Shown: piece by piece, positions 513 through 53,027 of the stretch
Layout: each line of letters starts with the position of its first letter
How positions within the stretch are numbered: position 1 is the first letter of the stretch
Origin: a bacterium
GTDB lineage: Bacteria; SZUA-182; DTGQ01; JBLIRR01
Reading direction: 5' to 3'
Length of the DNA: 64,000 bases
Assembly: GCA_049472395.1 (NCBI GenBank)
Contig: JBLIRR010000012.1
Span: 55,777 to 119,776, forward strand
Notes under the pieces: generated by a model
Told to the model about the DNA's origin: nothing
Databases searched by the model: none
Seen by the model: the letters and a program-made list of their open reading frames with translations, nothing else
Translations under genes and position numbers: made by a program

Positions 513-521
513 TGGTATAAT
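513..521 (+). promoter_or_regulatory. Extended -10 element TGGTATAAT upstream of secreted-protein gene
   Basis: TGnTATAAT match about 45 nt upstream of ATG 567; AAGGAGGAA ribosome-binding site at 555-563. Confidence 0.35.
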
Positions 522-566
522 AATAATAAGAGAATTAAATAGTGATACTTATAAAAGTAAGGAGGA

Positions 567-1226
567 ATGTGTATGTTTTATAAAAATTCTAAAAAATTAT
601 TTGTAATTATATTTTTTATCGTATGTGCTGTGAGCCTTTCCTTTGCAATTTCTGCTCATGCACAGAATAATTGGACGGCTATGCCTCCCTATAATACGCT
701 GTGGCCCCTATGGTCTCCGGCACTTTCCCCTTATGATGCTGTTACAGGGATACGCACACCAATAGTGACAAGTCTTGAAGCTACTGTTGAACTTCCTGTT
801 GAACCTGCCATAACCTGGGACCCGAGTCTCGCATATCCCTGGCTCTTATATAACACGCCAGTCGGCATGGCTTATTTTGATCCACTCTATGGAATAAATT
901 TTTGGCCTCCTGCATCTTTACTTGATGACGCGGGCCTTCCTCTTCCCCTTGTATTACCTGATTTGTATAGTGCTTTAGCGCCGACAGATACAACGTGGCT
1001 GCAACAGAATGTCCTTTTTGCAAACTCTTATTTTCTCCAGGTATATCCCTCTTTGCTTGCAACTGCAGACCCAGCTGCATTAATAGCCGCTGCAACAATT
1101 CCTCTTCCTCCGGCAATAGTTGCGGCTCTCAACCTTGGATTACCGGTTGTAGGATTAGGAACAACTATTTTCCCTCCTCCTGATATACTCGATTTTCTCA
1201 CTCCTGCTGCCCTGTTAGGATTGTAA
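567..1226 (+). CDS. Secreted Pro/Trp/Tyr-rich protein, paralog of 23289-23912
   Basis: N-terminal signal peptide ending AISAHA; shared motifs PPYNTLWPLWSPALSP and YLLYNTPxGMAYxDPLYGINxWPP; strong RBS. Confidence 0.8.
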   Translation: MCMFYKNSKKLFVIIFFIVCAVSLSFAISAHAQNNWTAMPPYNTLWPLWSPALSPYDAVTGIRTPIVTSLEATVELPVEPAITWDPSLAYPWLLYNTPVGMAYFDPLYGINFWPPASLLDDAGLPLPLVLPDLYSALAPTDTTWLQQNVLFANSYFLQVYPSLLATADPAALIAAATIPLPPAIVAALNLGLPVVGLGTTIFPPPDILDFLTPAALLGL

Positions 1227-1298
1227 TTTTTTATCCTCGTCACACCACCCTTTCTCTGTATGGGAAAGGGTGGGTACAATAAACTCAAGGAAACATTC

Positions 1299-2723
1299 TT
1301 AGTGATGTCCGATTAAACGTTTTAACCTTTTATTGAGAGCAGATTGCGTTATACCTAAAAGGGATGCTGCTATTGATTGATTGTTTTTTGCTCTCTTTAA
1401 AGCTTCTTTAATGGCCAATTCTGAAATCTGACGCAGGGTTGGGAATTTATCTTTAATAATAAAGATCGGTTCATTTATTTTTCTGGCAGTATAATGTCCT
1501 GAGAGGTGAGAATCATTTATATGGCCAAGTTTTTCTCTAAAGCAGTTTAATGAGAGCGTGCCTCTGATATGCCTGCTGACGGCTTCAAATACCATTGCCT
1601 TTAATTCACGTATATTTCCTGGAAAATGATATGTTTCAAGTAGTGTGTATAATTGAGGGGGAATATTAGTGACCTTCACCCCGATCTCTTGAGATGCTTG
1701 ATGAATAAAATGATGTATGAGCACTGGTAAATCCTCAAAGCGCTCCCTGAGGGGAGGAACTTTAATTTCATAAACCCGAAGGCGATAATAAAGATCACTG
1801 CGAAATTTTTTCTGAACAACCAAATCACTTAAATTTTTATTCGTCGCGGTAATAATACGTGCATTGGCCCGTTCGACGAAATCTGAGCCGAGAGGATAAT
1901 ATTCGTGTGTTTCAAGAAGACGCAACAGCTTTATTTGTGAGGAAGCACTGAGGTCTCCAATCTCATCAAGAAAAAGAGTGCCGAATGCTGCTTTTTTGAT
2001 GAGCCCCTCACGGACAGTATCTGCACTTGTAAATGCACCTTTTTTATGTCCAAAGAGGGTATCGGCAAATACACTATCATCTAAACCCGCTGCATTAACC
2101 ACGATATAGTTGCCTTTCCTTCCGCTCAAGGAGTGAATACATTGTGCAATAAGTTCTTTTCCCGTGCCTGATTCACCCGAAATTTGAATGGGAAGGTTTG
2201 TTTTTGATATGGACTCAACGTAGAGAAATAATTTTTTCATTGAATCACTTGTAGTAATGATATTGGAGAATATTTTAGGATGTTTAAGTATATGTGAAAA
2301 AAAGTATTGTTTTAAATTAAGGTTTTCTTCTCTCAATTCCCTGATCTTCAGCGCATTTGTTACTGCAGTGATAAGTTTTTGATTCTCAATTGATTTGACT
2401 AAATAATCAGATGCCCCCATCTTCATGCATCGTATGGCTGTTTCAACTTCATTAAGACCAGTTATAATAATAATTGAGGTATCTGGAAAATCCTCTTTTA
2501 TTATGGGAAGTAATTTCTCTCCTGAAATATACGGCATAGTTAAGTCAAGCAGGACTAAGCCAACCTTCTTCTCATTTATAATTTCAATTACCTGTGTGCT
2601 TTCATTGCAGCATAATATATTGTTCATTCCTGCTGCTTTGAGCACTCGGCTAAGGCTTACTAAAATCTGGGTTTCATCATCTACAATTAATATAGGATTT
2701 AAGGGATATAATGTGTCATTCAT
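1299..2723 (-). CDS. Sigma-54-dependent response regulator (NtrC family)
   Basis: N-terminal receiver domain (ILIVDDE...), AAA+ sigma-54 activator motifs GESGTGKE and GAFTSA, C-terminal HTH; 8-nt overlap with upstream kinase gene. Confidence 0.9.
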   Translation of the reverse strand: MNDTLYPLNPILIVDDETQILVSLSRVLKAAGMNNILCCNESTQVIEIINEKKVGLVLLDLTMPYISGEKLLPIIKEDFPDTSIIIITGLNEVETAIRCMKMGASDYLVKSIENQKLITAVTNALKIRELREENLNLKQYFFSHILKHPKIFSNIITTSDSMKKLFLYVESISKTNLPIQISGESGTGKELIAQCIHSLSGRKGNYIVVNAAGLDDSVFADTLFGHKKGAFTSADTVREGLIKKAAFGTLFLDEIGDLSASSQIKLLRLLETHEYYPLGSDFVERANARIITATNKNLSDLVVQKKFRSDLYYRLRVYEIKVPPLRERFEDLPVLIHHFIHQASQEIGVKVTNIPPQLYTLLETYHFPGNIRELKAMVFEAVSRHIRGTLSLNCFREKLGHINDSHLSGHYTARKINEPIFIIKDKFPTLRQISELAIKEALKRAKNNQSIAASLLGITQSALNKRLKRLIGHH

Positions 2724-5418
2724 AATATTCTTTCCTCGCTGATAAAATAATTTGAGCTGTTGTTCCCTGACCCTCTTGCGAACTCAGATTCAGGCGTCCA
2801 TTATGTTCATTAATAATAGTCTGAGATACTGAAAGTCCAAGACCTGTCCCGCCCTGTTCCCTTTTTGTGGTAAAGAAGGGATCCTTAATTTTCTTAAGAT
2901 TGCGGTGAGGAATACCCGTTCCTTCATCTTTTACTTCAATGGTGACAGTCCCTTTATCTTTCTGTTGATAGGTTAAAATAAAAATACCCTGTGTTCTATT
3001 TGTTAAGGCATGACAGGCATTTTGGATTAAATTTATGACTACCTGCTCCAAGCGCTGGCTATTTCCTTGAATCATGGGCAGATTTTCATCAAGAAGAAAG
3101 GTAAAATTCCTGGTTGATTTTTTAAGCATAGTTGATGTAAGAGAAATGGCAGATTGAACTATTTGATTAATATTTAATAGGGTAAACTGTCTATGAGGAT
3201 CTTTTCTGGCAAAATTTTTTAATTCTTTCACGATTCTGTCAATCCTTATAGCGCCATCAGCGATATCGTTTAAGCAATTGAGAATGTCATCCCGAATATG
3301 TGAGTAGTGGAGCCCTCCAATAATAAAATCACCATTCTCTCCATAATAATTATTGAGAATGGGGAGCGCCCCCTCAAGAATCCTTCTCAAAAATGGAGTG
3401 TTTGACATAATAAACTGATTTGGATTATTTATCTCATGGGCCACTCCTGTTACCAGTGTCCCCAATGAGGCAAGCTTATCAGCCTGGATAAGCTGTTCTT
3501 GTTTTTCACGTGCTTCTTTTTCCATCTTTTTACGTTCAGTTATGTCTTCGATCATTCCCATTAAATATTTTGGATTGCCCGATTGCTCTCGAACAAGGCT
3601 CACAGTGAGGTTTGCCCAAATTATAGAGCCATTTTTATGATAATACCGTTTTTCTATGGAATATGTTTTTAGAGTATCGTGAAGCAATTTTTCATGATGC
3701 TCCAGATCTATTGCCAAATCTTCAGGATGTGTAATCTGCTCAAAGGTTAATTCTAATAATTCATTCTGAGTATAGCCGACCATTGTGCAAAAACGCTGGT
3801 TGACTTTAAGAAAACGCCCATCAGGCCTCGCATATACCATACCAACGGCAGCCTGTTCAAATATCTTCCGGAATCGCTCTTCACTTTCTCTCAAGGCCTT
3901 CTCAGTCCGTTTACGCATCGTGATATCTTGCACTGTTCCATATAAGCGTCGTGGATTTTCCTCCTTATCTCTCTCTACTATTCCTTGAGAAAACAATATT
4001 CTTTCTTCCCCATGATTTGTGATAATTCGATACTCAATCTCGTAGGAATTACCATTTTTCAGTGTATCGTGGATAGCCATATTGAGATGAATAAAATCGT
4101 CAGGATACACCCTATCCCTATATATATCATAAGTAATATCAACTGCTTTTGGTTCGTAGCCGAATAATCTATATACTTCATCTGACCATGTTATTGTGCC
4201 CTCAGTTATGTCCCACTCCCAGTCGCCGATGTGGCCGATCTCTTGAGCCTTCGCTAATCTATCGCGATTTCCTTGCAGTTTCTTTTCAACCTCTTTACGT
4301 TCGGCGATTTCCTTTTTTAATTGCTCATTGCTCATTTTGAGCTCAACTGTGCGCTCGTTTACCATATGCTCAAGATGATCCCGGTGTTTTATAAGTTCTT
4401 CTTCCGCCTGTTTTCGTTCAATAATCTCACCTATTCGTTTTGCGATTATTTTAATGAGATCCTTATCTGAACCTCGATCTTTTTCACGATAACTTATTTC
4501 CAATGATCCTTTTACATTACCATGAACTTTAATAGGCTCTGAGTGCGTGCATTCGCTCTGTTGGGGACTGTGGGTAGTATATTCATAATCTTCAAAGATT
4601 ATTTTAGGGTTGGTCATGTTCGAATGTTTCAATGAAGAGGAAATAATCTTTACTGCTTCCTGAATTATTTTCTCTAAGCTCATATAGTGCTCATCAATTC
4701 TTGAAATCCCATAGAGACAGTTGAGTTCTTTCAGCCGCTTATTAAGAATGAGCATTAGCAATCTGTTTTCCTTCTCTACCTTTTTCCGCTTAGTAATATC
4801 CTTAATATCTTCAACAATCCCCACAAGCTCACCCGTGAGACTCTTGAAGGGCGTTGCTGTGACAATACAATGAATTTTGATCCCATTTTGCCCCTCTTTT
4901 TCAACATCGCATTCTATATACCTCTCGCCTCGTAGAATTTTATTTAATGGACAATCAAGGGTTTGACACAGCGAGCCATGAAATGTCTCAAAACACTTTT
5001 TCCCTATTGCATCCTCTCTATTTACACCTAACATCTTTGACAGAGTGTCATTAATTTTAAGCACAGTGAAATCTTTATTAATTAAGCGCATGCCATCGGC
5101 CGCTGTGTTAAATATCTGATCGAGCTCAATTTGAGCGAATTTGATAACATCTTTTTCCTGCTTTAGTCTGTTCATTATATATTGCGCGCTCGCTCCGAAT
5201 AGTATGATTAATACTATGATTATTACACGCATCCATATTTCATGGAGAGGAGGAGTCATTAGATGGTTGAGGAAATTATGTCCCGGAAATATATATGCAT
5301 GAATTTCGGATCCAAGTACCCAATAAAGTGCGCCTGTAACGATGCCGGCAAGAAGGAATGGCCCCCCTGCTTTATTCGCTACTTCTCTCATTCTTACTTT
5401 TCTTATATTGTGTATCAC
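2716..5418 (-). CDS. Membrane-anchored multi-PAS sensor histidine kinase
   Basis: N-terminal TM helices, several PAS-like segments, coiled-coil, HisKA H-box (GVAHEINNP) and HATPase_c G-boxes (GTGIPH, GGTGLGLS). Confidence 0.9.
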   Translation of the reverse strand: MIHNIRKVRMREVANKAGGPFLLAGIVTGALYWVLGSEIHAYIFPGHNFLNHLMTPPLHEIWMRVIIIVLIILFGASAQYIMNRLKQEKDVIKFAQIELDQIFNTAADGMRLINKDFTVLKINDTLSKMLGVNREDAIGKKCFETFHGSLCQTLDCPLNKILRGERYIECDVEKEGQNGIKIHCIVTATPFKSLTGELVGIVEDIKDITKRKKVEKENRLLMLILNKRLKELNCLYGISRIDEHYMSLEKIIQEAVKIISSSLKHSNMTNPKIIFEDYEYTTHSPQQSECTHSEPIKVHGNVKGSLEISYREKDRGSDKDLIKIIAKRIGEIIERKQAEEELIKHRDHLEHMVNERTVELKMSNEQLKKEIAERKEVEKKLQGNRDRLAKAQEIGHIGDWEWDITEGTITWSDEVYRLFGYEPKAVDITYDIYRDRVYPDDFIHLNMAIHDTLKNGNSYEIEYRIITNHGEERILFSQGIVERDKEENPRRLYGTVQDITMRKRTEKALRESEERFRKIFEQAAVGMVYARPDGRFLKVNQRFCTMVGYTQNELLELTFEQITHPEDLAIDLEHHEKLLHDTLKTYSIEKRYYHKNGSIIWANLTVSLVREQSGNPKYLMGMIEDITERKKMEKEAREKQEQLIQADKLASLGTLVTGVAHEINNPNQFIMSNTPFLRRILEGALPILNNYYGENGDFIIGGLHYSHIRDDILNCLNDIADGAIRIDRIVKELKNFARKDPHRQFTLLNINQIVQSAISLTSTMLKKSTRNFTFLLDENLPMIQGNSQRLEQVVINLIQNACHALTNRTQGIFILTYQQKDKGTVTIEVKDEGTGIPHRNLKKIKDPFFTTKREQGGTGLGLSVSQTIINEHNGRLNLSSQEGQGTTAQIILSARKEYYE

Positions 5419-5570: not shown

Positions 5571-7898
5571 TCAATATTTTCCGAATTCATTATCATCAAG
5601 AGCTATGATCTTTTTGGGATCAACCTTGACAACTCCTATATTATGCATATTCTCGCCACCTGTGCCATGGAGCTGGCCGGTGCTATGAGCAGGGAGAGAC
5701 CTGACTTTATCAGATGGCCTCCTCGTAGGTGCTTGAGCATACATTTGCCGCTGGTGTTGATAATTCTTCAGGGTAAAGTGCTGGAGCAATCCTTTTAATT
5801 GATTGGCCTGGCTTGATAATTCCTCAGCAGCAGATGCCCCCTCTTCAGCATTGGCAGTCGCCTGCTGAGTTACTTGGTCTATCTGACTAAGCCCCTGATT
5901 AACCTGTGCTATCCCCTGAGCCTGATCATTTGATGCTGCGGCAATTTCGGCGACAAGATCCGAGGCCTTTGTGACACCTGTTAAGATTTCATTCAGAGCA
6001 TCGGCAGTTTTATTCGCAATGTCTGTGCCATTTTCTGTTTTCTTTACAGAGCCTTCGATAAGCTCTGCGGTCTCTTTGGCTGCCTTGGCACTTCGTCCGG
6101 CCAAATTCCTGACTTCTTCCGCCACAACTGCAAAACCTTTTCCGTGTTTTCCTGCCCGTGCAGCTTCTACCGCTGCATTGAGAGCGAGTAGATTTGTCTG
6201 GAACGCTATCTCATCAATGACCTTGATGATTTTCGAGATATTCTTACCTGATTCATTTATTTCACCCATGGCACTCACCATATCCTGCATCTGTGAATTT
6301 CCTCTTTCTGCTGCTGCTCGTGCTTCATTGGCGAGCTGATTTGCCTGATTAGCATTTTCCGCGTTTTGTTTTGTTTGAGATCCCATCTCATTCATAGAGC
6401 TTGTGATCTGCTCAAGGGAGGATGCTTGCTCTGTAGCTCCTTGTGAAACCGACTGACTTGAGTCGGAAACCTGCTGTGAACCTGATGCGATTTGTTCCAC
6501 TGATAAGCTGATCTGTCCCATAATATTGTTAAGATCACTATTCATTTTTATTAAGGCTGTTCCTATAACGTCCTTCTCATCCTTTCGTTTGGCATCAAAG
6601 GATAAATCCCCTTCGGCAAGCTTTTGTAAAGACCCGACAAATTCATATTGAAGATAATCTGCAAAGTGATCCATGGCCATGGCCATTTGGCCTATTTCAT
6701 CCTTATCTTCTATATTGAGGCGCATATCAAGATGGCCAGTGCTCATCTCCTTAATCATGTCAACAGTTTTATTGAGCGGGTTTACAATGCTGCGGGTAAT
6801 AATTAAGGCAGCAAAGATCCCCGCAATGATGGCAAGAAGAGAGATAAGAGGCACCACCACTAAAGTCTTATCAATCTTTTGCCCCATCTGCGTTGTTGCA
6901 GAACTCGCCATTTCAGTGAGCCTGTCCCTGATCCTTCCCAGAACCGCAAGCGTCTCCTCAGCGGCAGTCTCTGTTTCTTCCTGCATAATATGCATCGCCT
7001 CTTCAATTGATGCTTCGGCCTCTTTTTGGGCAATCATTGACTTATGATACCTCTCCCCTGCTTCTTTAAATGAATTGAGGCTGTTTTGTATACTGCTTAG
7101 AGTAGGGTGAAGCCCTGATATTCCTTCGATAAGGCTTGCCCAGGAGGAAATCCCCTCTTCAACTGAGCGAAGCTGCTCTTTATACGTAGCCCATTGTTCA
7201 TTAGTCGGAGTAATAGCAAGCTCTGCTGCTTCCGAGCGCAGTATGAGAAATGGAGCAATAACGCCTTCATTCATCTCCATATCAATTTCTCCCCATTTCA
7301 CTATAGCCGCTATATTTCCTCCCTGTTCAGCCTTCTCTTTTGCAGGATCAATAACATTTTCCATTCCCCTGTCAAGTGTTTCAGTGAATTTTTGAGCTAT
7401 TCTATCCCATTCTTCCCGAACCTCCTCTTGAATTTCCTGGGCTCTCATATAGTCTTCCCACTTGTAAAGGTTTTTAATTTTTATAGCTGATGCATGCAGT
7501 CGGTGATGGGGCTCCTCAACCTCTCGGAGAAGGCGGGCTATTTCAGGATCTTCTGCGGCGATCTCCCGGGCATCCTCTCCATAGAGCCACTGGCCGAAGC
7601 CGCACTTACGGTCATCTGTTTCAACATCAAGGCTGGTGACCTTATCATCTGCAAACATATTATTGACTCTACCCATCCACCGGACATGATCTATGATTCT
7701 CTGAAGAATTTCCGCTTGCAGGTGATCATGTTCCACAACTTCATGAGCCAAATGGTCAACAGAGCGGAAGTTGACATAACACATACCCCCGATAAGGGTC
7801 AGAAGAACAAGTATCACCCCGAATCCACATCCAAGTTTTGCAGAAAGTCTCATATTTTTAAACATGGCTGTAAGCTCCTTTCTTTGTTGTGGTATCAA
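5571..7898 (-). CDS. Methyl-accepting chemotaxis protein with CZB-like motif in the N-terminal sensor region
   Basis: Two TM segments flanking a ~300-aa domain, HAMP, MCP signalling domain ([19 protein letters not shown]); HxxxW...CGFGQW...HHRLH spacing matches the chemoreceptor zinc-binding signature; true start may be the internal MFKNMRL. Confidence 0.9.
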
Positions 7899-11969: not shown

Positions 11970-14054
11970 TTACCTTGTCCTTACTTTATATCCAACTTCG
12001 ATAATGCCACCAGCGCAGTCCCCTGGAATCTCAGCCTTGGAAAATCCTTTCTCCACTTCTTGAATATTTGCTTTACCGAGAAGATTACGTTCATCCTTAA
12101 AGATATTAAATTTCATGCCGGGGAAAATTCCTTTTTCCGTTCCCGTATCTGTATGGAACGTTTTTCCATTTTTTGCGATGATAGTCCCTGTACATAAAGG
12201 AAAAGAGTCCCGAAATTTCATTGAAAGACCGGAAATAATTAATGAAAGGTCATCGATGGTCTCAGAGGGGCTAAATACATCGTGATAGAGACGAATAAGA
12301 CCAGTATCAACTTCGATGAACCTTGCGAGTATCTCAATTCCATCCTCTCTTGTCGTGACGTATCCATATATTATTCCTTCTGCAGTTGTTATTTTGCCTA
12401 TCTGGTGCGCTTCAAGGCCCTGGATACTTTTCTCCATTATTATTTTGGGTAGTTTTTCCCGTTCGACCAAGGTAAAACGCCCCTGTTCTGAAAAAGATTC
12501 AATGGTCTTATTATAGATATAAGGAATAGTGGATTCATCATTCCTCATGCCATCACTCTCAAAAGGGAGTATAGCCAGTATCATCTTTTCTTCACTTTTA
12601 AAGATTTTTTCTCGCGGAACTTTCTGTATATAATGATGCGCTTCATCTTGATTTCCTAATCTATCTTCTACCAAAAGATTGAGCACTGTCATTTTTTCTT
12701 TAAGATGTATCATCTTATTAATATAATAAATATTATACCTTAACAAAATTGTGCGAACAAGTTCTATATATTTTTGAGGATTCTTGATTTCAGGAGTACG
12801 TGTTCGAAGTTTATCCATATTATTTTCCACAATCGTTTCTATTTCCGATATATGAAATAGTGTCCTATCATTGAGCTTTATCTGTTGTATTCCATTATTA
12901 GTCCGAATAATGCCCTCTAAAAAGATGTCGTGGTAATAGGTGGCAAAATCTTCTTTTGGTGGGTAGGTGATCTCAATGGAGATATCTCTTTTTGAGGGTA
13001 TCATCGCCAAAGTTGATGGCTCTCCATCATGAGAGGGCATATTCTGAGCAATTTTAACCCATTTTCCCGGTGGCGGCGTAAGAGGTATTTCCCCTTGAGT
13101 GATATTGCCGGCGTTATCTTTTGTCCAAAATGTAGCCGTCTTTAAGCCCTTAGTAAGAGGAATTGAGTGTTCAATAAGACACACCTGGTCAAGACCTATC
13201 GTGGGTACTTCTTTCTGATTCAGTGTAAAGGATTGAATACCGGACAGGTCATACACTATTGCGGTAAGAAGCACTTGATCTATTTTACCGCTTTTGTCAG
13301 GGTAGATTATATCTGCGATTACTATGGGTCCTTGTTGATCAAGGAAAATACGAATAGCCTTTTCTGCTTCTTTGCCGACTAGATCTTTGGTGGTGATGCT
13401 CACAGTATTCCAGCCCGCCTCAAGATCGACTGATACATGAAAGGGGAAGATAGGTTCGGCTAATTCAATAAACAGGGGATCGTGGTTTACTGAAACAGCA
13501 GCTATATAGTGATCATCATGTGCCATTCCGGTAACGCTGAAAGTAGTTTTATTCGTTCGGTATAGTTCTTTTTGCATTTCCAAATCGATCCCGGGAGGTT
13601 GTATATCCAATCCCGATGCAATGAGAGATGCCTTGCGAGTTTGATTAAGATAATATTTGGCCCTTGCCGAGCCACTGTGGCTCATAGATAATTCCAGTTC
13701 TTCTAATGCGTCCTCGATTAGTCCAAGATGGAAATAGCATATACCCAGTTCGCGATGAGGGAAATATCCTTCGCGGAAATGCATTCCATATGCCCTGGCA
13801 TATGGTTGATCTTGGTAACGAAGTTCAATAGCATCCTTGAATTCTGAAATCGCATATTCCCAACATCCTCCCCGCATACAGCTTATGCCCCGTCTATAGC
13901 ATGCATCCCAGGTTACCACATGAATCTTGTCTTGAGTAATACAATATTTCTTACCATCTTTGATACAGATTCTCGCCTTTTGCATAGAACATGCATAGAT
14001 AAGAATGATCATCCCTAGAAGCACAACATTTTTTATTTTGTCGTGTTTATACAT
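11970..14054 (-). CDS. TPR-containing lipoprotein with TolB-N-like and C-terminal beta module; partner of the cyclase-CHAT protein
   Basis: Lipobox-type signal peptide (IYACS); TPR-like helices near the N-terminus; LAILPFESDG segment and a C-terminal module resembling the C-terminus of the upstream gene product; 9-bp gap to the upstream gene. Confidence 0.7.
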   Translation of the reverse strand: MYKHDKIKNVVLLGMIILIYACSMQKARICIKDGKKYCITQDKIHVVTWDACYRRGISCMRGGCWEYAISEFKDAIELRYQDQPYARAYGMHFREGYFPHRELGICYFHLGLIEDALEELELSMSHSGSARAKYYLNQTRKASLIASGLDIQPPGIDLEMQKELYRTNKTTFSVTGMAHDDHYIAAVSVNHDPLFIELAEPIFPFHVSVDLEAGWNTVSITTKDLVGKEAEKAIRIFLDQQGPIVIADIIYPDKSGKIDQVLLTAIVYDLSGIQSFTLNQKEVPTIGLDQVCLIEHSIPLTKGLKTATFWTKDNAGNITQGEIPLTPPPGKWVKIAQNMPSHDGEPSTLAMIPSKRDISIEITYPPKEDFATYYHDIFLEGIIRTNNGIQQIKLNDRTLFHISEIETIVENNMDKLRTRTPEIKNPQKYIELVRTILLRYNIYYINKMIHLKEKMTVLNLLVEDRLGNQDEAHHYIQKVPREKIFKSEEKMILAILPFESDGMRNDESTIPYIYNKTIESFSEQGRFTLVEREKLPKIIMEKSIQGLEAHQIGKITTAEGIIYGYVTTREDGIEILARFIEVDTGLIRLYHDVFSPSETIDDLSLIISGLSMKFRDSFPLCTGTIIAKNGKTFHTDTGTEKGIFPGMKFNIFKDERNLLGKANIQEVEKGFSKAEIPGDCAGGIIEVGYKVRTR

Positions 14055-14063
14055 GAGGATTCC

Positions 14064-16877
14064 CTAGAGCTTTTTTTCAGTCCCTTTTATAGGATCTCCA
14101 GATTCAAATGGTACGTTTTGCTCAAGGATTTCTGCTACAGCCGTGCTTTCGTTTACCTTTTTTATGAGGATATACCCTTTTGTGGTTCTTTCTTCTGGTG
14201 TATCTAATTCCGGTGTATTTAAGACCGTGAAGACCTGATCCTGCCTCACTCCCATATTATGTCCAAGATTAATCTTGATCTCATCTCCTTCCAAAGACAT
14301 TATTCTACCTTTGAGAGGGTAATGGGTTGCGAGATTCTCGATGGTTTTACGGACCAATTCGGAGGCAATAGTTTCTAAGCTCTCTGTCTCAGGAAAGAAT
14401 GGTTGAGAGAATGCAGTGAGTATTTCAGTACTGTGTGTTTCTACAAGGCGAAGGCTTATTTCCGATTGTAATCCTTCACGTGTTTTATATGAGACGGGCT
14501 CAGGGAAAAGAATGATGCGGGCAGAGAGCAGTGTATAGGCATCCTGTAATGATTTTGATGAAAGTGTGGGAATCCCAATCTGAAGCTCCTGCAATATTCC
14601 TGCTATCCTTTTTCGCTCAAGTACGGACAAGCCAATTGAGGTGGTCTGAGTAAATACCTCAATCATCCTATTGAAAAGCTTTTCATAATGACCCTTCAAG
14701 GATACAACAGCAGGATCATCCAGTTCCTGCCAGTTCGGTGCAATGATACAAATGGAGATAGGCTGTGATGTCCATGTATCTGACTGGCTCTTGGTTGCGA
14801 AAAAACCTTTATTGTTAAATTGTTGGGTAAGCTGATCTTGATAGGAAGAAAGAATTTGAATAGTCTGTGTTATTTTTTGAAAATCAGGGTCTATTCCGGC
14901 TTCTTGAATGTAAGAGGGGAAAATGTTCGGAAGATTTCCATGAGGATCTTTATATGATTTTTTAAGACCCATATAGGCGTTTGTAATAAGAAGCATAATG
15001 ATAAGAGAGAGGCTTGCTCCCGTGAGCACTTGTTTCCATGACCAGGTTTTTTTATTGCTCTCTTTTATGTTTAAATCTCTATGAGCTGTCTCTGACCTCA
15101 CCATGCAATATTTTTTCTCATCCGGCTCTGGCTCCTTGATTTGTTCCATATAATTCGATGTGGGATCTCCGTACAGGACATAGCTTGCCCAGATAATCGC
15201 CTCTTCTTCATATTGATTAATTAATGAGAGCCTAGCTTTTCTTAAAGCTTCTCCTATGCTCATGCCAGAGAGAATGTTTTCATAGAATTCTAATGCAAAA
15301 TAACTTCCTTGGTTATCAGGAATTTCCCAGAATGTCCCAATGTAATGTTTTACTCCTGCTAAAAGAAACGCATTGGCCAATCCGAAGATTTCCTCCTGAA
15401 ATTGTTCTTTTAAGGTCCATTCATTAGTGCGTGCTGATTGACATGCATTCGAGAAAATAAGGGCGGGCATCTTTGAGGTGGCTATTGTGCTGATATCCCG
15501 TGCTGTGATGTTTTTACCTCCGGTTTTCCATCCACTCTCCTCGGGGCTTGTGTGATTAAACTCGGCATGACCTGCAAAATGGACAATATCAAATTGTTCA
15601 AATTTTTTTTTCAGATATTCACAGGTCAGGTTTTTTGAGCGTAAGGTAATATTTATGAAATTCTTTTCTCTCAGCATGAAGTCACGAATCCGAGAGCCTT
15701 CTGCATATGCATTCTTCAGATCCCCTTCCAGGTCTGCTATGATCAGCATATTTAATGGCTTTGACAATACCCGTGATTTACTTCCATTCACTGTCTGTTT
15801 GGTTTTTACTAATCTCCCCATATTGAAACGTTGACAAAGGAATTGATGGCCATCAAAAATAAGCTCCCAAGGGATCTGGACGAGTTGGTCATCGATATGT
15901 AAGGTTAAGTAATGCGCCCTTGTTTCGTCAAGCTTTTTCTTAAGGGAAGGGGAAAACAGTTTTTCATAAAAGGCCTGCCCAGTCTCTCTTAGTTTTAGGA
16001 GAAGCTCACGCTTGAAAATACCCAGGCGAAGCGCTTTATTAAAGGTATCGACCATCTCATTGCATTCTTTATTAATCCACTCCATGGAGATTGGGATCTG
16101 TTCATAATGACGAATAGTGCTTTCTTCTCCGGCCATGTGCTCATTAGAGCTAATTTTTAAATGATCCCTCTCACAAAGCACTTCGAGCCGAAAGACCATT
16201 ATGGATTTTTTCATTCTCTCTTCATCGGGTTCTTCACTAGCGCGCAGTTTCGGCTTTCCCCAGATGACCTGGAAAAGCTTTAAAGATTGAGCCCTACCTC
16301 TTGGAAGAGAGTATTTATCATACATACAGGTAATGTCCTCAGAGGATTTGACTTTTTCATAGACCTTCTTTGAGATAATTATCTGATAAGCCTTAGCGTG
16401 AGATTGGATACGTGATGCTTGACTTACCGCATTACCATAAATATCTGACTCCTTCATATAAACCTCATCCCAACTTATGCCGATCCTCACATGTATTTTA
16501 GAAATTTCTCCTATGATGGTGTTATAGGCATATAATCTTTTCTGAATTGCTATTGAGGCTTTTACTGCCGAGAGAGGATCTGGGAAATAGGCCATAAGCT
16601 CATCTCCCAGGGTTTTATATATCGTCCCCTTATTGCCTGCAATGATAGGCATGACGATCTGCCTGAGTTTTTGCACAAGACTTTTCCCGCACACATCACT
16701 GCGGGTATCAATAAAGTTTGGATAGTCATAAATGTTGGCAAAAAGAATAGCGAGTTTCTTCTTGTATTGTCCATTTAAAATTTCATCAATAAATTCTTTC
16801 CCCACTAATATTTCTTCAATCATGCCAGGGAATTTTCCAAAGAATACTTCATGATCTCTTGGCTTTAATTCCTCCAT
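14064..16877 (-). CDS. Membrane-anchored class III nucleotidyl cyclase domain / CHAT protease domain fusion protein
   Basis: N-terminal cyclase homology motifs (LAILFANIYD, YKTLGDELMAYF, RIGISWDEV, YGNAVSQASRIQS); CHAT motifs (QIPWELI, HFAGHA, FSNACQSA, AGVKHYIGTFWEIPD); one TM helix; ~300-aa C-terminal extracytoplasmic region. Confidence 0.8.
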   Translation of the reverse strand: MEELKPRDHEVFFGKFPGMIEEILVGKEFIDEILNGQYKKKLAILFANIYDYPNFIDTRSDVCGKSLVQKLRQIVMPIIAGNKGTIYKTLGDELMAYFPDPLSAVKASIAIQKRLYAYNTIIGEISKIHVRIGISWDEVYMKESDIYGNAVSQASRIQSHAKAYQIIISKKVYEKVKSSEDITCMYDKYSLPRGRAQSLKLFQVIWGKPKLRASEEPDEERMKKSIMVFRLEVLCERDHLKISSNEHMAGEESTIRHYEQIPISMEWINKECNEMVDTFNKALRLGIFKRELLLKLRETGQAFYEKLFSPSLKKKLDETRAHYLTLHIDDQLVQIPWELIFDGHQFLCQRFNMGRLVKTKQTVNGSKSRVLSKPLNMLIIADLEGDLKNAYAEGSRIRDFMLREKNFINITLRSKNLTCEYLKKKFEQFDIVHFAGHAEFNHTSPEESGWKTGGKNITARDISTIATSKMPALIFSNACQSARTNEWTLKEQFQEEIFGLANAFLLAGVKHYIGTFWEIPDNQGSYFALEFYENILSGMSIGEALRKARLSLINQYEEEAIIWASYVLYGDPTSNYMEQIKEPEPDEKKYCMVRSETAHRDLNIKESNKKTWSWKQVLTGASLSLIIMLLITNAYMGLKKSYKDPHGNLPNIFPSYIQEAGIDPDFQKITQTIQILSSYQDQLTQQFNNKGFFATKSQSDTWTSQPISICIIAPNWQELDDPAVVSLKGHYEKLFNRMIEVFTQTTSIGLSVLERKRIAGILQELQIGIPTLSSKSLQDAYTLLSARIILFPEPVSYKTREGLQSEISLRLVETHSTEILTAFSQPFFPETESLETIASELVRKTIENLATHYPLKGRIMSLEGDEIKINLGHNMGVRQDQVFTVLNTPELDTPEERTTKGYILIKKVNESTAVAEILEQNVPFESGDPIKGTEKKL

Positions 16878-20334: not shown

Positions 20335-21795
20335 ATGCATAAAAAGGCTGAAACTCTAATAGAATTTTTGCAGAACAATGGCGCCTCCTATGGTGATATT
20401 CGAATCCATCTTGATGATGAGACAGAGTCTTTTCAGACATTAAATGGGGTGATCCAGGAAACATCGAGAAGAGCGGCACAAGGTATCGGCATCCGGGTAC
20501 TTTATAATGGTGCATGGGGATTTGCCTCGACCGAGGATTTTACTCGGATGGAATTATGTGCGAGGACAGCCCTTAATAATGCACAAAGTGCCTCGGCTCT
20601 CATACGCTCACCTATTGAGTTAGCGCCAAAAATGATATATCAGGACAATTTCACCTCTCCCGTGGGCACTGATCCTTTCAGTATTACAACAAATGAGAAG
20701 ATAAAACTTCTTCTTGAACTTGACGGGAAAATAAAAGATCCGAGGCTTTCATATTGGACAGTGTTCGCGGTTTTTGATAAAAAGAAGATACTTTTTCTCG
20801 ATACCGAAGGTGCCCGGATCGAGAGAAACCTTCATGATATCGATGCGGGATTAATGGCCTTTACGAATGATCCGCAAGGCAGACAGCACAGGAGGAGTCA
20901 TAATCTTTTCCTAGATGCCGATGGGAAAATCGGCTGGGAGTCTCTTCTCAGCGCCCCTCACTTTCTTTCACATGCAACAAGGATAAAAAATGAGCTTTGT
21001 GAGGTAATTGAGGCGGAAAAGTGCCCGCACAGGGTATGTGATCTAATTCTTTTAAACGAAATGATGGCTCTCCAGGTTCATGAAACCATAGGGCATGCGC
21101 TTGAGCTTGATCGTATTCTTGGGTATGAATTAAGTTATGCGGGGGGAAGTCACATTGAGCTGAAGGATTTTGGCAGGCTCAAGTTTGGAAGTTCTAAACT
21201 CAATGTAAGGGCTGACGGGACGGTCAAGAATTCACCTGGCTCTGTCGGCTATGATGATGACGGGGTGAAGGCGAAAAATGTAGTGCTTATAGAAAATGGA
21301 ATATTAAAAAGCGCTCTTACCTCAAGACAGATGGTCAAAGAGGCAAATAAAAAAGCAGGAAAAATCATTTTTGAAAGCTCCGGAGGGGCGAACAGGGCCT
21401 CAGGTTATAACAGGTTGCCAATTGAAAGAATGAATAATATTAATGTTGATCCGGGTGATGATGGTGATATTAATCAAATAATCGCAAGCTGTGAAAGTGG
21501 TCTTATGGTCGAGTCTCCGGTTTCGTGGTCTATTGGATCAAATCGTGAGAATTTTCATTTTGCCACTGAAATTGGATGGGAGATTAAAGAGGGTTCGATA
21601 GCAAGAGTTGTAAAGAATCCATCCTATGGGGGCAGAACATTAGAGTTTTGGAACTCGCTCGCGAAGGTGGGCAATAGCACAACCTGGCGGCTGCAACAGG
21701 TCTTTAACTGCGGCAAGGGACAACCGAATCAAATCATGCGCCTTGGGCATGGTGTCCCTATTTGTTTATTTAAGAATGTGGAGGTCGGCAATTAG
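20335..21795 (+). CDS. tldD: TldD-family metallopeptidase
   Basis: TldD/PmbA fold motifs (GIGIRVLYNGAWGFAST, HETIGHALELD); immediately followed by a PmbA-like gene. Confidence 0.8.
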   Translation: MHKKAETLIEFLQNNGASYGDIRIHLDDETESFQTLNGVIQETSRRAAQGIGIRVLYNGAWGFASTEDFTRMELCARTALNNAQSASALIRSPIELAPKMIYQDNFTSPVGTDPFSITTNEKIKLLLELDGKIKDPRLSYWTVFAVFDKKKILFLDTEGARIERNLHDIDAGLMAFTNDPQGRQHRRSHNLFLDADGKIGWESLLSAPHFLSHATRIKNELCEVIEAEKCPHRVCDLILLNEMMALQVHETIGHALELDRILGYELSYAGGSHIELKDFGRLKFGSSKLNVRADGTVKNSPGSVGYDDDGVKAKNVVLIENGILKSALTSRQMVKEANKKAGKIIFESSGGANRASGYNRLPIERMNNINVDPGDDGDINQIIASCESGLMVESPVSWSIGSNRENFHFATEIGWEIKEGSIARVVKNPSYGGRTLEFWNSLAKVGNSTTWRLQQVFNCGKGQPNQIMRLGHGVPICLFKNVEVGN

Positions 21796-21797
21796 AT

Positions 21798-23165
21798 ATG
21801 GAGACGCTGCTGCATACTCTTCAAGTCATAAACAATTATATGAAGGAAAGGGATATCTGTGGTGAACTCTTATATCGAGGAGAGAAATCTCATTTATTGA
21901 GGGTAGCCAATGATCAGGTGTCTCTTAATGTCACAGAGGAAGGTGGAAAATTCTTTGTCACCTTACAAGATAATAAAAGGTTCGCAAGGGGAAGCATTGC
22001 GACCTCAGCTGAGAATATCACCCACATTAAGGGCTTGATTGATGATCTTCACGAATCAATCCGATTCTTCCCCGAGGTTCCTTTTTCCACTCCCATGAAG
22101 CCCATATGTCAGCACACGCCCTACACAGCTCACTGTGATCCTGAGATAGAAAACATGGAAAGCAGCATTATGCGCGGGCTCTATGAGAAGGCTATAGAGT
22201 ATTATGCCCCGCGAGGTCTAACAACATCAGGCTCTTTTTCTGCAGGAATGTATGAATATGCTCTCATTAATACCCTTGTGGAGATGCCCCTCTATTATAA
22301 AGGCACTGATTTTAATACTGAGGTAGTATTACAGTTGATGGAAGGGAAAAAAGAAGTACGGATCGATTCATGTGGTGCCAGATTATCTCAGAATGATCCG
22401 GATAGGCTCTTAAAGGACCTTGAGAGAAGTGTCCATTGTATGGTAAGCACAGAATGCACTGAAATTAAACCGGGTAAATATGATGTCATTTTTGGTATTA
22501 ATGCAATTGCCGAGCTTATTTCTTTTTTGAGTTGGCTCGGATTTGATGGGGAGACCTACGAGTATGAAATGGGAATGCTGCAAAAGAGCATCCATAAAAT
22601 GGGGGATAGGATTTTGGGTGAGAATTTTACCCTTATTGATGACCCTGAAGATCCTGATATATTATATGCCCATCCCTTTGGAATCAATGGAGTAGAGCGC
22701 AAAGGCATAAGGATTTTTGACAAGGGGAGAATATGCTATCTTTATTATTCTGATAAATTGAGTGCAGACAGATTTGGACATGCGGTAAATAACGATATTT
22801 CTACTGCAAACTTGAAATTATTGGGAGGAGAGGGCCCGGCAAGTTTTAATGAGATGGTCTCACATTGTGCTGCCCAGACAATATATATCCCCTATCTTCA
22901 TTATATGCATTCACCGAACAGAGCGGCGGGTGAGATTACCGCAACAACACGATTTGGCACATTTTTACTTGAGGATGGCAAGGTCAAGAAGCATTTTATT
23001 AATTTTCGCTTACATGACACATTATTTAACATCTTTAGTAACATTGAGTGGTTAAGCAGCACTCTGTCAGCAGTTAATCTTGCGGATACCTATGATCTGC
23101 GTTTTGCCAAAAGCCTCACCGCTCCTTTATATATGAGAGTAAAGGGAGTGTCACTTAGCAATTAA
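21798..23165 (+). CDS. pmbA: PmbA/TldE-family metallopeptidase
   Basis: TldD/PmbA family sequence pattern; 2-nt spacing after tldD suggests an operon. Confidence 0.7.
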   Translation: METLLHTLQVINNYMKERDICGELLYRGEKSHLLRVANDQVSLNVTEEGGKFFVTLQDNKRFARGSIATSAENITHIKGLIDDLHESIRFFPEVPFSTPMKPICQHTPYTAHCDPEIENMESSIMRGLYEKAIEYYAPRGLTTSGSFSAGMYEYALINTLVEMPLYYKGTDFNTEVVLQLMEGKKEVRIDSCGARLSQNDPDRLLKDLERSVHCMVSTECTEIKPGKYDVIFGINAIAELISFLSWLGFDGETYEYEMGMLQKSIHKMGDRILGENFTLIDDPEDPDILYAHPFGINGVERKGIRIFDKGRICYLYYSDKLSADRFGHAVNNDISTANLKLLGGEGPASFNEMVSHCAAQTIYIPYLHYMHSPNRAAGEITATTRFGTFLLEDGKVKKHFINFRLHDTLFNIFSNIEWLSSTLSAVNLADTYDLRFAKSLTAPLYMRVKGVSLSN

Positions 23166-23200: not shown

Positions 23201-23253
23201 CACAGAGATCACAGTAGTAGAGTGAAATCACCGTCTCCGCTGTGATCTCTGTG
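23201..23253. terminator. Long-loop hairpin between convergent genes (putative bidirectional terminator)
   Basis: Perfect 14-bp inverted repeat CACAGAGATCACAG / CTGTGATCTCTGTG with a 25-nt loop, followed by an AT-rich stretch. Confidence 0.4.
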
Positions 23254-23288: not shown

Positions 23289-23912
23289 TCAATAGCCGAG
23301 AATAGCTGCCGGCGTCAATAGGGAGCTGAATGTAGGCGTAGGAGTAATCAGAGAGGCTAACCAGGGTGTCAAACCTGTTAAATTCGGTGGGAGCGCTATG
23401 GTGCTCGCCAGATTAGCATAATTTGGATATTCAGCAATATAGGCTAAGTTAGCAATCGGCACGACATCCTCAATCCACAGAGGATCTGTCGGAAGTAATA
23501 GTGAAAAACCAAGCGGCAGACCAACGGGTATGGGGAGACCGGTTACCGTATCTATCATATAATTTGGCGGCCAAAGATTTATGCCGTAGAGAGGATCGTA
23601 ATAGGCCATTCCAATAGGAGTATTATAGAGTAAATAGGGGTAGCTAAAACTAGGGTTCCACGTTAATCCCGGCTGTACTGGCAGGACAGTTGTAGGATAC
23701 AGGGAATCAACGATTGGAGTGGCTAGTCCTGTCACAGGATCTGGTGGTGAGAGAGCAGGGGACCATAAAGGCCACAAGGTATTATAAGGTGGTAACGGGG
23801 TCCATGTCTGGGCATTGAGGCATGGAGCACACACTAATAACGACAGGACAACAATACTAAAAAGGCATAGAGACATATTTCGTAATAATCTTCGTAGTTT
23901 TTTTGATAACAT
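23289..23912 (-). CDS. Secreted Pro/Trp/Tyr-rich protein, paralog of 567-1226
   Basis: Signal peptide ending CLNAQ; motifs PPYNTLWPLWSPALSP and YLLYNTPIGMAYYDPLYGINLWPP shared with the 567-1226 product; GGGAGG RBS; real start may be the internal MSLCLF. Confidence 0.8.
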   Translation of the reverse strand: MLSKKLRRLLRNMSLCLFSIVVLSLLVCAPCLNAQTWTPLPPYNTLWPLWSPALSPPDPVTGLATPIVDSLYPTTVLPVQPGLTWNPSFSYPYLLYNTPIGMAYYDPLYGINLWPPNYMIDTVTGLPIPVGLPLGFSLLLPTDPLWIEDVVPIANLAYIAEYPNYANLASTIALPPNLTGLTPWLASLITPTPTFSSLLTPAAILGY

Positions 23913-23980
23913 AAAATTTTTTACCTCCCTTAAGAATAATAGAATTTAAAAATTAGAAATCTAAAGAGTTATAAATTCTA

Positions 23981-23989
23981 ATTATACCA
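23981..23989 (-). promoter_or_regulatory. Extended -10 element TGGTATAAT upstream of paralog gene
   Basis: Reverse complement of ATTATACCA gives TGGTATAAT about 70 nt upstream of start 23912; identical element to the one before the 567 paralog. Confidence 0.3.
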
Positions 23990-24010: not shown

Positions 24011-24472
24011 TTATTGAAGATTTATCCAGGATAAGTAATAATCCACTAAGCCGAATGAATATGTAGGGTAATTAGGCGGACCATAGGGTTGAAAAGTACC
24101 CGGCAGAGCTTGATAAGGGAAAGGGATTGCTTCTATGTAACTTAAATAAGGGTACGTAGCACTATCAAAATAATTATAAAGATATACTGCATAAGGATCG
24201 AGAAAAGGATTGTAACTATAGGCCCCCAATAAATCATTACCAGCTATAGGTGGTTTATACCCATATCCAAGGTAGTAAAAAGGATCAGTGATCGAATTAA
24301 TGTATCCATAAGTTGTAAAATAAAGTGGATCAAGATAATAATAAGAAATAGGTAATTGCTGACAATATGTATTTATGGGGGTAATAATAAAATAGATCGA
24401 TAAAAAGATTAAAGCTATATATTTAAAAAATCTAAGACTATCCATAAAGCTCCTCCAATTTAAATTACCCAA
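24011..24472 (-). CDS. Secreted Tyr/Pro-rich low-complexity protein
   Basis: Hydrophobic N-terminal signal-like segment; mature part about 25% Tyr with repeated Y-x-Y, PY and DP motifs. Confidence 0.6.
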   Translation of the reverse strand: MGNLNWRSFMDSLRFFKYIALIFLSIYFIITPINTYCQQLPISYYYLDPLYFTTYGYINSITDPFYYLGYGYKPPIAGNDLLGAYSYNPFLDPYAVYLYNYFDSATYPYLSYIEAIPFPYQALPGTFQPYGPPNYPTYSFGLVDYYLSWINLQ

Positions 24473-24623
24473 CCGTTTATGTAGAATTTGAAATATATCT
24501 TGATTTTATCACCCCCTGTTTTCATTTCTTATGTAAAAATTATGATTATCCATCCGATCGAAAAGAAAAAATAAAATGAAAAAATGTTTAGATATATAGT
24601 GGTAATATTATAACCAAAAAACT

Positions 24624-24647
24624 AATAATTGTCAAGTGACAATTATT
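24624..24647. promoter_or_regulatory. Palindromic candidate operator
   Basis: AATAATTGTCA-AG-TGACAATTATT: 11-bp inverted repeat arms with a 2-bp spacer, in the intergenic region upstream of the 24011-24472 gene. Confidence 0.3.
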
Positions 24648-24753: not shown

Positions 24754-25476
24754 TCAGGGAATAATTATTTGAGGGATTTCTCCAAGAAATTCTCCACTCT
24801 TTTTATTAAAAAATTGCGCGCTATAGGTGCCGGAGGGTAAATTTTCAATGAGTGTTGTGAGATCATAATTGCACACGCATCTGCACCCGCTGCCATCCAA
24901 TAGTTCTTCCTCATAAATGTTAATGGTATGATCAACTATTTCCATGCTTCTGGCTATCTCTATAATACAGCAATTAAAAAGTGCATCTTTATGATAGAGA
25001 TAGAGAATATCATGTTCATACAGGTAGCTGAATTGTGAATGCTTTTCTTCTCTTGTGGTGGGATTGCAGTCACTATTTGAGTACTCTTTAATTGCTGGTT
25101 CCAATGTTTCAGAACTTGTTGGTCCTAAGGGGAAAATCCAGGGGAAGTAGAGAGCAGGGGATGCCCACTGAAACTGATAATCAGGAATGGCCAACGGTGT
25201 ATTTACAAATGAAGGGAAAAAGTCTTGTCCCCATGAAGAGGAAGGAGACCATGGCGTAATGTAAATTGGTCTCTGGGAAAAGATTGAAGAATATGGCTCC
25301 CAGATTGACGATAACGATACCTGAGAAAAGAGTGGGGAAACTGTCCATCTATTATTCACAATAAATGGTGATGATGGATTTGTCGTGTATGAAGTGAATA
25401 ATTGTGCTTCTATATTAAAGGAAGACAATAAGAGGATAGAGATTAAAAGAATAATAATATAGCCCGCTTTTTTCAT
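24754..25476 (-). CDS. Secreted protein with Ser/Pro/Trp-rich N-terminal half and Cys-containing C-terminal domain
   Basis: Signal peptide (IILLISILLLSSFNIEA); the N-terminal half has low-complexity composition similar to the neighbouring secreted proteins. Confidence 0.65.
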   Translation of the reverse strand: MKKAGYIIILLISILLLSSFNIEAQLFTSYTTNPSSPFIVNNRWTVSPLFSQVSLSSIWEPYSSIFSQRPIYITPWSPSSSWGQDFFPSFVNTPLAIPDYQFQWASPALYFPWIFPLGPTSSETLEPAIKEYSNSDCNPTTREEKHSQFSYLYEHDILYLYHKDALFNCCIIEIARSMEIVDHTINIYEEELLDGSGCRCVCNYDLTTLIENLPSGTYSAQFFNKKSGEFLGEIPQIIIP

Positions 25477-27589: not shown

Positions 27590-27592
27590 TTT

Positions 27593-28453: not shown

Positions 28454-28460
28454 TATAGTG

Positions 28461-29879: not shown

Positions 29880-29883
29880 TATC

Positions 29884-50054: not shown

Positions 50055-50135
50055 GATTGAGGAGCCAGGATTGAAGAGCCAGAATTGAAAGCGAACCAGG
50101 GTTGAGCCTAAACCACTGTGAGCTCAACCCTGGTT
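50053..50135. terminator. Direct repeats plus 14-bp perfect hairpin between convergent genes
   Basis: Three ~14-bp direct repeats (AGGATTGAGGAGCC, AGGATTGAAGAGCC, AGAATTGAAAGC) then inverted repeat AACCAGGGTTGAGC / GCTCAACCCTGGTT with 14-nt loop (50094-50135); weak T-tract. Confidence 0.4.
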
Positions 50136-52991: not shown

Positions 52992-53027
52992 TATTTTGTT
53001 CTATTTCCTCATTACACAAAGCTTTTC

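Follow-up and report, generated by a model that had tools for sequence, protein, structure and literature searches.

Two paralogous genes in the window

The DNA analysed here (the window) is a 64,000-nucleotide stretch of contig JBLIRR010000012.1, from an uncultured bacterium. It carries, 22 kb apart and on opposite strands, two genes whose products belong to an undescribed and unannotated paralogous family of Trp/Pro-rich proteins. The mechanically called open reading frames (ORFs), 567..1226 (+, 219 residues) for paralog 1 and 23289..23912 (-, 207 residues) for paralog 2, lie where an earlier note, made from the letters of the sequence, had placed them. For paralog 1, ATG 573 rather than 567 is the likely start, since it leaves a spacer of 7 nt to the ribosome-binding site (RBS), as against 1 nt for ATG 567, and since the deposited product has 217 residues.

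The long shared motifs on which the earlier note had linked the two proteins persist in a proper alignment, which gives 102 identities over 220 positions (46%, E 3e-55, BLASTP) and 72% identity within an 82-residue core. A 16-mer (PPYNTLWPLWSPALSP) is identical in both paralogs and absent from the rest of the window in all six reading frames, while the second motif reads PWLLYNTPVGMAYFDPLYGINFWPP in paralog 1 and PYLLYNTPIGMAYYDPLYGINLWPP in paralog 2 (consensus P[WY]LLYNTP.GMAY.DPLYGIN.WPP). The C-termini (LTPAALLGL in paralog 1, LTPAAILGY in paralog 2) share the pattern LTPAA[LI]LG[LY]. At the codon level the core retains 59 identical residues of 81 with only 20 identical codons; the proportion of differing synonymous sites (pS) is 0.82 and thus saturated, whereas that of nonsynonymous sites (pN) is 0.19 in the core and 0.46 outside it. 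With synonymous sites saturated and pN low in the core, the pair is the product of an old duplication, and the protein has been under purifying selection. The saturation excludes recent duplication or gene conversion as the source of the similarity, and the selection on the protein excludes spurious ORFs. The top 120 database matches include at least 8 paralogs from the metagenome-assembled genome (MAG) to which the window belongs.

Export signal and domain organization

Three family alignments, with 31, 108 and 109 members, gave the anatomy of the proteins (Table 1). The leader is variable across the family, with ~31 residues, a mean of 3.2 Lys/Arg, a hydrophobic stretch and a consensus cleavage site A-x-A↓Q-N-W. 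In the AlphaFold2 (AF2) model of paralog 1 the corresponding segment is a helix (residues 6-29) detached from the rest of the protein, with the predicted local distance difference test score (pLDDT) dipping below 50 at residues 28-30. The basic n-region, hydrophobic h-region and A-x-A↓Q site are those of a Sec substrate cleaved by signal peptidase I (SPase I), and both proteins are predicted to be exported in this way, in keeping with the earlier note, which had called them secreted. The cleavage region of the family alignments has no conserved Cys that would complete a lipobox ([LVI][ASTVI][GAS]C), so that the proteins are not bacterial lipoproteins, and the class III signal peptide of type IV pilins is likewise absent, the cleavage site being A-x-A↓Q-N-W and the mature N-terminus a β-hairpin in the models.

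Behind the leader stands a conserved domain marked by invariant or near-invariant positions (W34, PPYNTLWPLW(S)P.LSP, P63, L74, TW82.P, PWLLYN.P.G, DP, G107, WP112 and W142), with DP..G..WP also among its family-wide motifs. It is followed by a variable segment that is gap-rich throughout the family, of low alignment occupancy, uncharged and made largely of Pro/Ala/Thr/Val. Conservation resumes in the C-terminal tail, which in the family reads (S)LLTPxAxLG[LWY], some members adding 3-6 hydrophobic residues.

The Pro/Trp/Tyr-rich composition described in the earlier note extends over the family, with 17.0% Pro, 15.8% Leu, 9.1% Thr, 5.6% Tyr and 4.5% Trp across 168 mature members. Charged residues and Cys are rare in the same set (Lys 0.58%, Arg 0.63%, His 0.22%, Cys 0.17%, Glu 0.77%; median of 1 basic residue per protein). 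Mature paralog 1 (187 residues) contains no Lys, one Arg and no Cys with a grand average of hydropathy (GRAVY) of +0.54, and mature paralog 2 (173 residues) contains no Lys, Arg, His or Cys with a GRAVY of +0.36. Proteins that are exported by Sec and have the hydrophobicity of membrane proteins, while containing neither a transmembrane segment nor basic residues, would be expected to settle in a membrane or on a hydrophobic surface, or else to associate with one another.

Predicted structure

Supplied with the family alignments, AF2 returned models of both paralogs with a mean pLDDT of 92.3 (predicted template modelling score 0.82 for paralog 1 and 0.81 for paralog 2), their secondary structure elements following one another in an identical order. 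The models predict with high confidence a compact α+β domain. In paralog 1 six short strands of 3-6 residues (34-37, 42-45, 79-82, 90-95, 98-103 and 107-110) are combined with a long helix (140-163) and several short helices, five helices overall, and pLDDT within the conserved domain is 90-97. The variable segment of paralog 2 is modelled less confidently (pLDDT 63-72). The C-terminal tail reaches pLDDT 93-96 in paralog 1 and 95-97 in paralog 2, and on the strength of these high values in both models it probably belongs to the folded unit.

The predicted fold is not recognisable among solved structures, the comparison being with the Protein Data Bank (PDB) only: Foldseek found no structural relative there (best E 2.3, TM-score at most 0.15), and a profile search of PDB sequences gave no match. 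Weak resemblance was seen to two-layer α+β sandwiches such as LptE, SecB and chaperones of the type III secretion system. A β-barrel, for which the earlier note had proposed a check, is not borne out, as both models contain six short strands and five helices rather than a closed barrel of at least eight amphipathic transmembrane strands. When C-termini were inspected for a β-signal, many members were found to end in W/Y/F, and many in L/I/P/T or in short extensions.

Distribution of the family

Searches of Pfam-A 2025, NCBIfam 20.0, PHROGs v4 and PADLOC 2.0 gave chance matches only (E 0.02 or higher, within the signal peptide), and when each of the 109 aligned members was scanned against Pfam, no family emerged at E up to 0.01. 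Together with the negative PDB sequence search, this agrees with the earlier note, whose author had not recognised the family. A search of 5.8 billion sequences found 423 relatives, all from MAGs and every named one a 'hypothetical protein', and an exhaustive hidden Markov model search among 1.84 billion representatives at 50% identity found only 103 clusters. A scan of one genome per GTDB species gave 95 matches in about 13 MAGs. The homology search that the earlier note had called for thus yields a narrow, one-lineage range. Per-genome copy numbers are lower bounds and come to at least 24, 14, 13, 11 and 10 in five MAGs.

The source habitats are mangrove, mudflat, cold-seep and spring sediments, and the MAGs with members include the MF1/MG1/MG2 bins, CSMAG_150 and CSMAG_2299 (cold seeps), Zod_Metabat.896 (Zodletone spring), HOT.CON.50 and MAG299. 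The MF1/MG1/MG2 bins come from Futian mangrove and mudflat sediment according to passages of PMC13280167, and an entry in the supplement of PMC9040765 classifies the member-carrying Zod_Metabat.896 in phylum SZUA-182, as a novel class. The family appears, from its sequence distribution, to be confined to one uncultured lineage, probably candidate phylum SZUA-182. The RecJ protein encoded in the window has relatives above 50% identity in unnamed MAGs only, its matches at 45% or less being scattered across phyla, a pattern that fits a deep, poorly sampled lineage. Passages from the SZUA-182 literature, which are brief mentions, concern taxonomy and sulfur metabolism, not surface proteins.

The conserved domain heads long fusion proteins

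About one in ten family clusters consists of long proteins, in nearly all of which the domain lies directly after the signal peptide. It is succeeded by right-handed Beta_helix, PKD and Chlam_PMP repeats in one member (P0135), by FG-GAP and BACON in another (P0166) and by LVIVD repeats in a third (P0143), while four others (P0088, P0095, P0123 and P0132) run on into long, uncharged stalks of Pro/Thr/Val and keep the hydrophobic tail at their end. Two proteins from other metagenomes are architectural exceptions, with the PPYN motif twice in tandem near the N-terminus of one (P0142, 509 residues) and the domain at residues 1035-1179 rather than N-terminal in the other (P0140, 1,353 residues). 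SLH and WxL domains are conserved terminal modules that anchor diverse surface proteins. By analogy, one conserved terminal module shared between stand-alone and diverse surface proteins would be behaving as an envelope-anchoring or assembly device, and the occurrence of the domain at the head of both stand-alone forms and adhesin-type fusions is what suggests this role. Variable parts made of uncharged Pro-rich segments or adhesin-type modules, with recurrent neighbours that are secreted too, do not have the make-up of polymorphic toxin systems, in which a variable C-terminal toxin domain goes with a cytoplasmic immunity gene beside it.

Signals for expression

Each gene is preceded by an unstructured leader with a strong Shine-Dalgarno sequence and, as the earlier note had observed, by the same extended -10 element (TGGTATAAT). 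That part of the observation stands, the window containing exactly two copies, one upstream of each paralog. The count of two is not significant on its own (1.14 expected; two or more reached in 31 of 100 shuffles), so that the placement of the copies, not their number, carries the information. No usable -35 accompanies either copy. As a signature of the family the element was rejected, TGnTAnAAT occurring upstream of 3 of 91 family genes as against 9 of 371 background genes; a third paralog of this organism carries cATTATAAT, where the TG of the extended -10 is missing. Both genes are followed by terminator-like hairpins that contain no U-tract. The hairpin 3' of paralog 1, whose stability was equalled in 0 of 200 shuffles, sits between the convergent genes for paralog 1 and a sigma-54 regulator. 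Both genes look like stand-alone, monocistronic units, and their promoter, RBS and hairpin signals suggest high expression.

Table 1. Features of the two family genes, their products and the adjoining secreted-protein gene (window coordinates)
Feature	Position	Strand	Details
Paralog 1, coding sequence	573..1226	+	217 residues; NCBI MGA1868842.1, ACMUJM_09875
Paralog 1, extended -10 element TGGTATAAT	513..521	+	52 nt upstream of ATG 573 (46 nt from 567); without a good -35 hexamer
Paralog 1, RBS AAGGAGG	559..565	+	7-nt spacer to ATG 573
Paralog 1, signal peptide (predicted)	573..662	+	residues 1-30, ...SAHA↓QNNW
Paralog 1, conserved Trp/Pro-rich domain	663..1052	+	precursor residues 31-160; most conserved core 31-112
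Paralog 1, variable hydrophobic Pro/Ala-rich segment	1053..1187	+	residues 161-205; 9 of 45 identical between paralogs
Paralog 1, conserved C-terminal tail	1188..1223	+	...DFLTPAALLGL
Hairpin 3' of paralog 1	1245..1273	.	perfect 10-bp stem, CCACCCTTTC / GAAAGGGTGG; free energy (dG) -23.7 kcal/mol, z -4.1
Paralog 2, coding sequence	23289..23912	-	207 residues; NCBI MGA1868856.1, ACMUJM_09950
Paralog 2, extended -10 element TGGTATAAT	23981..23989	-	69 nt upstream of ATG 23912
Paralog 2, RBS GGGAGG	23924..23929	-	upstream of ATG 23912
Paralog 2, signal peptide (predicted)	23811-23912	-	residues 1-34, ...CLNA↓QTW
Hairpin 3' of paralog 2	23201..23253	-	14-bp perfect arms, CACAGAGATCACAG / CTGTGATCTCTGTG; dG -32.3 kcal/mol, z -5.5
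Small secreted Tyr/Pro/Phe-rich protein	24011..24445	-	ACMUJM_09955, 144 residues; adjoins paralog 2 upstream, same strand
Sigma-70 promoter of the 24011..24445 gene	24635..24607	-	perfect TTGACA-17-TATAAT

Genomic neighbourhood

Small secreted Pro/Tyr/Phe-rich proteins recur beside the family. Of 14 such ORFs at the sampled loci, 9 are no more than 700 nt away from a family gene and share its strand, and at three loci (L042, L035 and L062) small Pro/aromatic-rich genes alternate in tandem with family genes. The example adjoining paralog 2 (ACMUJM_09955) contains 25 Tyr in the 116 residues of its mature part and has only 13 homologues, all from the same uncultured lineage. In the same minus-strand cluster a third secreted protein (24754-25476, 240 residues, signal peptide ...NIEA↓QLF) combines a Pro/Ser/Trp/Phe-rich N-terminal half with a Cys-containing domain in its C-terminal half; it matches no family, and its one relative, 45% identical, is at locus L029. 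The A-x-A↓Q cleavage context recurs in the family, in the Pro/aromatic-rich neighbours and in the 24754 gene (window and loci L001-L079), so that many of the mature proteins would begin with Gln, possibly as pyroglutamate. Elsewhere in the window a secreted Gly/Tyr-rich repeat protein (50143-50578, -) has the signal peptide MKITTHKLIILSFLIFIVALSFTIQSAHA↓YYGGYGGY... followed by ~110 residues of (GGYGGYYGGLY)n without basic residues, encoded by a 33/66-nt tandem repeat (array about 50155-50371) with a strong hairpin at about 50095-50135, and bears a likeness to Tyr-cross-linkable structural proteins.

All-against-all clustering of the ORFs of 81 loci recovered only PAS histidine kinases, at 21 loci, as a recurrent neighbour. 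These were taken as background because at least three PAS kinases are encoded in the 64-kb window, suggesting kinase-rich genomes. Neither the sigma-54 regulator and kinase by paralog 1 nor the TldD/PmbA metallopeptidase pair (20335-23165, +), convergent with paralog 2, is syntenic with family members elsewhere, and the latter pair is probably unrelated to paralog 2, since the arrangement is not conserved beside other members.

The remainder of the window is dense in signalling genes (1299-5418, -; 50958-55592, -; 56475-57320, +; 59163-60692, +; 5571-7898, -), comprising several PAS histidine kinases and hybrid kinases along with a CZB/HAMP chemoreceptor and two sigma-54 activators, which suggests an organism with a complex lifestyle. 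An operon-like run (26636-32788, -) encoding a ROK kinase, shikimate dehydrogenase, Mur ligase (Mpl-like), β-lactamase-family protein, LD-carboxypeptidase and LOG/SLOG protein looks like a peptidoglycan-recycling cluster, which would imply a murein-containing envelope. Also present are an unusual fusion of an adenylate/guanylate cyclase with a CHAT (caspase-like) protease (14064-16877, -, 937 residues), an adjoining 694-residue TPR protein (11970-14054, -) and a 1,643-residue protein (41501-46432, +) that matches Pfam only in leucine-rich repeats around residue 300 and is otherwise unannotated.

Discussion

We give an even chance to the reading that these genes represent a lineage-specific family of Sec-exported envelope or surface proteins that have in common a new Trp/Pro-rich α+β module for anchoring or assembly; both the surface localization and the anchoring or assembly role of the domain are what we infer from the features described above. 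According to this reading, SPase I would cut the precursor after A-x-A and leave an N-terminal Gln that may cyclise to pyroglutamate, yielding a mature protein of ~19-20 kDa. Its first ~130 residues would fold into six short strands packed against the long helix and held together by the invariant Trp, Pro, Tyr and Asn residues, and behind the variable hydrophobic Pro-rich segment the conserved tail (LLTPxAxLG[LWY]) would pack back onto the domain. The conserved domain would then serve as a common envelope-targeting or assembly module and the remainder as the displayed or variable part, whose extent varies, with ~40 residues in the genes of the window, long Pro/Thr/Val stalks in other members and, at the upper end, over 1,000 residues of β-helix, PKD, FG-GAP or LVIVD modules. 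The stand-alone forms, nearly uncharged, would be produced in quantity and, with the Tyr/Pro-rich and Gly/Tyr-rich secreted proteins encoded nearby, would make up a hydrophobic surface coat or matrix, and the two genes of the window are probably members of this stand-alone, abundant, hydrophobic structural type.

The suggestion of the earlier note that the composition points to a structural or matrix protein has arguments on both sides. Hydrophobicity, scarcity of basic residues, signals of high expression, the many paralogs and the aromatic-rich, low-complexity secreted neighbours all speak for it. However, the proteins are not low-complexity material, and their compact α+β domain, as predicted by AF2, also heads adhesin-like proteins, which shifts the emphasis towards an anchoring or assembly module. 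Several points weigh against the reading preferred here. The anchoring or assembly role leans on the position of the domain in ~10% of clusters and on composition, and a confidently predicted compact fold is unlike classic low-complexity matrix proteins. No conserved neighbourhood and no secretion, sortase or assembly gene beside the family points to a pathway, and the placement of the window genome in SZUA-182 is indicated only indirectly, by shared lineage-specific genes.

Among known systems the mycobacterial PE/PPE proteins would be the closest architectural analogue. They share a short, motif-named N-terminal domain (~110-180 residues) followed by a variable C-terminal part of a few dozen residues to long repeats, a massive expansion in one lineage and cell-surface association. 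Unlike the α+β family with its cleavable Sec signal peptide, they are helical, carry no Sec signal peptide and leave by type VII secretion, and there is no sequence or fold relationship. The closest functional analogue may be found in the SLH (PF00395) and WxL (PF13731) domains, which likewise form a conserved aromatic-rich terminal module on many otherwise unrelated secreted proteins, ahead of adhesin or enzyme modules; the family happens to contain the WxL-like tripeptides WPL and WLL. In contrast to these domains, the 109 members have no Pfam match and a fold that is not recognisable, most are small and stand-alone, and wall binding is only putative. The family is a member of neither group. 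Chaplins, rodlins, hydrophobins and BslA resemble it in being small, secreted, multi-paralog, strongly hydrophobic and poor in charges, and surface coating would be expected in each case, whereas the proteins described here have no homology to them, lack Cys, are larger (~170-190 residues), contain 17% Pro and self-assemble only putatively. Neither the eight-Cys pattern of hydrophobins nor the chaplin domain PF03777 is present, both mature paralogs having 0 Cys and no Pfam match. The substrates of the PEP-CTERM/exosortase system are also found as many paralogs per genome in sediment bacteria, with a Sec signal peptide and a short Pro-containing C-terminal motif followed by hydrophobic residues.

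Two more specific proposals, each clearly less probable than the general one, deserve weighing. The domain could attach without a covalent bond to peptidoglycan, exopolysaccharide or a secondary cell-wall polymer, much as SLH, WxL or carbohydrate-binding modules (CBMs) do, with stand-alone paralogs as lectin-like decorators. This possibility, which we hold to be rather unlikely, is one specific version of the preferred reading and overlaps it. Aromatic platforms are typical of sugar-binding sites, and the six invariant Trp together with invariant Tyr and Asn within ~110 residues would suit one, as would the N-terminal position of the domain on adhesin-like multidomain proteins; yet many of the invariant Pro, Trp and Leu may merely form the core, the near absence of polar or charged residues is unusual for a lectin, and neither sequence nor fold resembles the CBM, SLH, WxL or LysM families. 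No more probable is a coat of the hydrophobin or chaplin kind, in which the stand-alone proteins would polymerise at hydrophobic-hydrophilic interfaces, possibly swapping the tail into the next subunit, and would give the cell surface or a sheath a hydrophobic character that might serve attachment to sulfur, hydrocarbons or mineral surfaces in sediments. Hydrophobicity without a transmembrane segment (GRAVY +0.36 to +0.54) and with essentially no Lys, Arg, His or Cys, the 10-24 paralogs per genome, the confident placement by AF2 of a hydrophobic tail found on none of 1,785 non-family ORFs, the co-located Tyr/Pro-rich and Gly/Tyr-rich secreted proteins and the anoxic sediment and seep habitats are all in its favour. 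Against these stand the predicted closed and compact monomer, the fusions, which suggest a cargo-carrying module rather than a pure coat subunit, and the absence of homology to hydrophobins (no Cys), chaplins, BslA, curli or Fap. Wall anchor and hydrophobic coat are not separable on present evidence. A bolder version is more doubtful still, namely that a new fold polymerises by tail donation and, with the Tyr/Pro-rich and Gly/Tyr-rich proteins, forms a lysine-free, protease-resistant hydrophobic coat or sheath unique to SZUA-182, to which adhesins are tethered by the same module.

Improbable is a role like that of a chaperone or lipid carrier in the periplasm or at the outer membrane, with a hydrophobic ligand or client as the thing bound; it is to this proposal that the weak structural resemblance to LptE, SecB and type III secretion chaperones relates. 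The least probable proposal, and one largely refuted already, makes the proteins substrates of C-terminal sorting (PEP-CTERM/exosortase type) or outer-membrane β-barrels recognised by the β-barrel assembly machinery. There is a superficial likeness between TPAALLG[LWY] and the beginning of PEP-CTERM or VPLPA-CTERM tags, and W, Y, F or L is the last residue of many members. However, the family proteins stop within ~10 residues of the TPA motif, the transmembrane helix and Arg/Lys cluster that define PEP-CTERM tags are both missing, and the models show six short strands and helices rather than a barrel. Its absence from the non-family ORFs also led to rejection of the tail as a general sorting tag, a weak test in that the strict pattern catches only 33 of 96 members.

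What is new here is the family and, relative to the PDB, the predicted fold; expanded surface-protein families with a conserved terminal module are known in kind. For candidate phylum SZUA-182 and its relatives we know of nothing on cell biology; one member is covered about 1,300x in an assembly from a cold seep. If this were merely another lineage-restricted family without known function its value would be modest. Its possible new fold makes it a clean structural-genomics target, and the domain may be used as a lineage-specific marker. Should the tail-donating coat prove true, it would constitute a new type of bacterial surface layer. With at least 10-24 copies per genome, apparently strong expression signals, extreme composition and no PDB relative of its predicted fold, the family is well qualified as a candidate for the chief building block or the anchor of the cell surface in this lineage, and surface properties govern attachment, aggregation and interactions with phages and predators in sediments.
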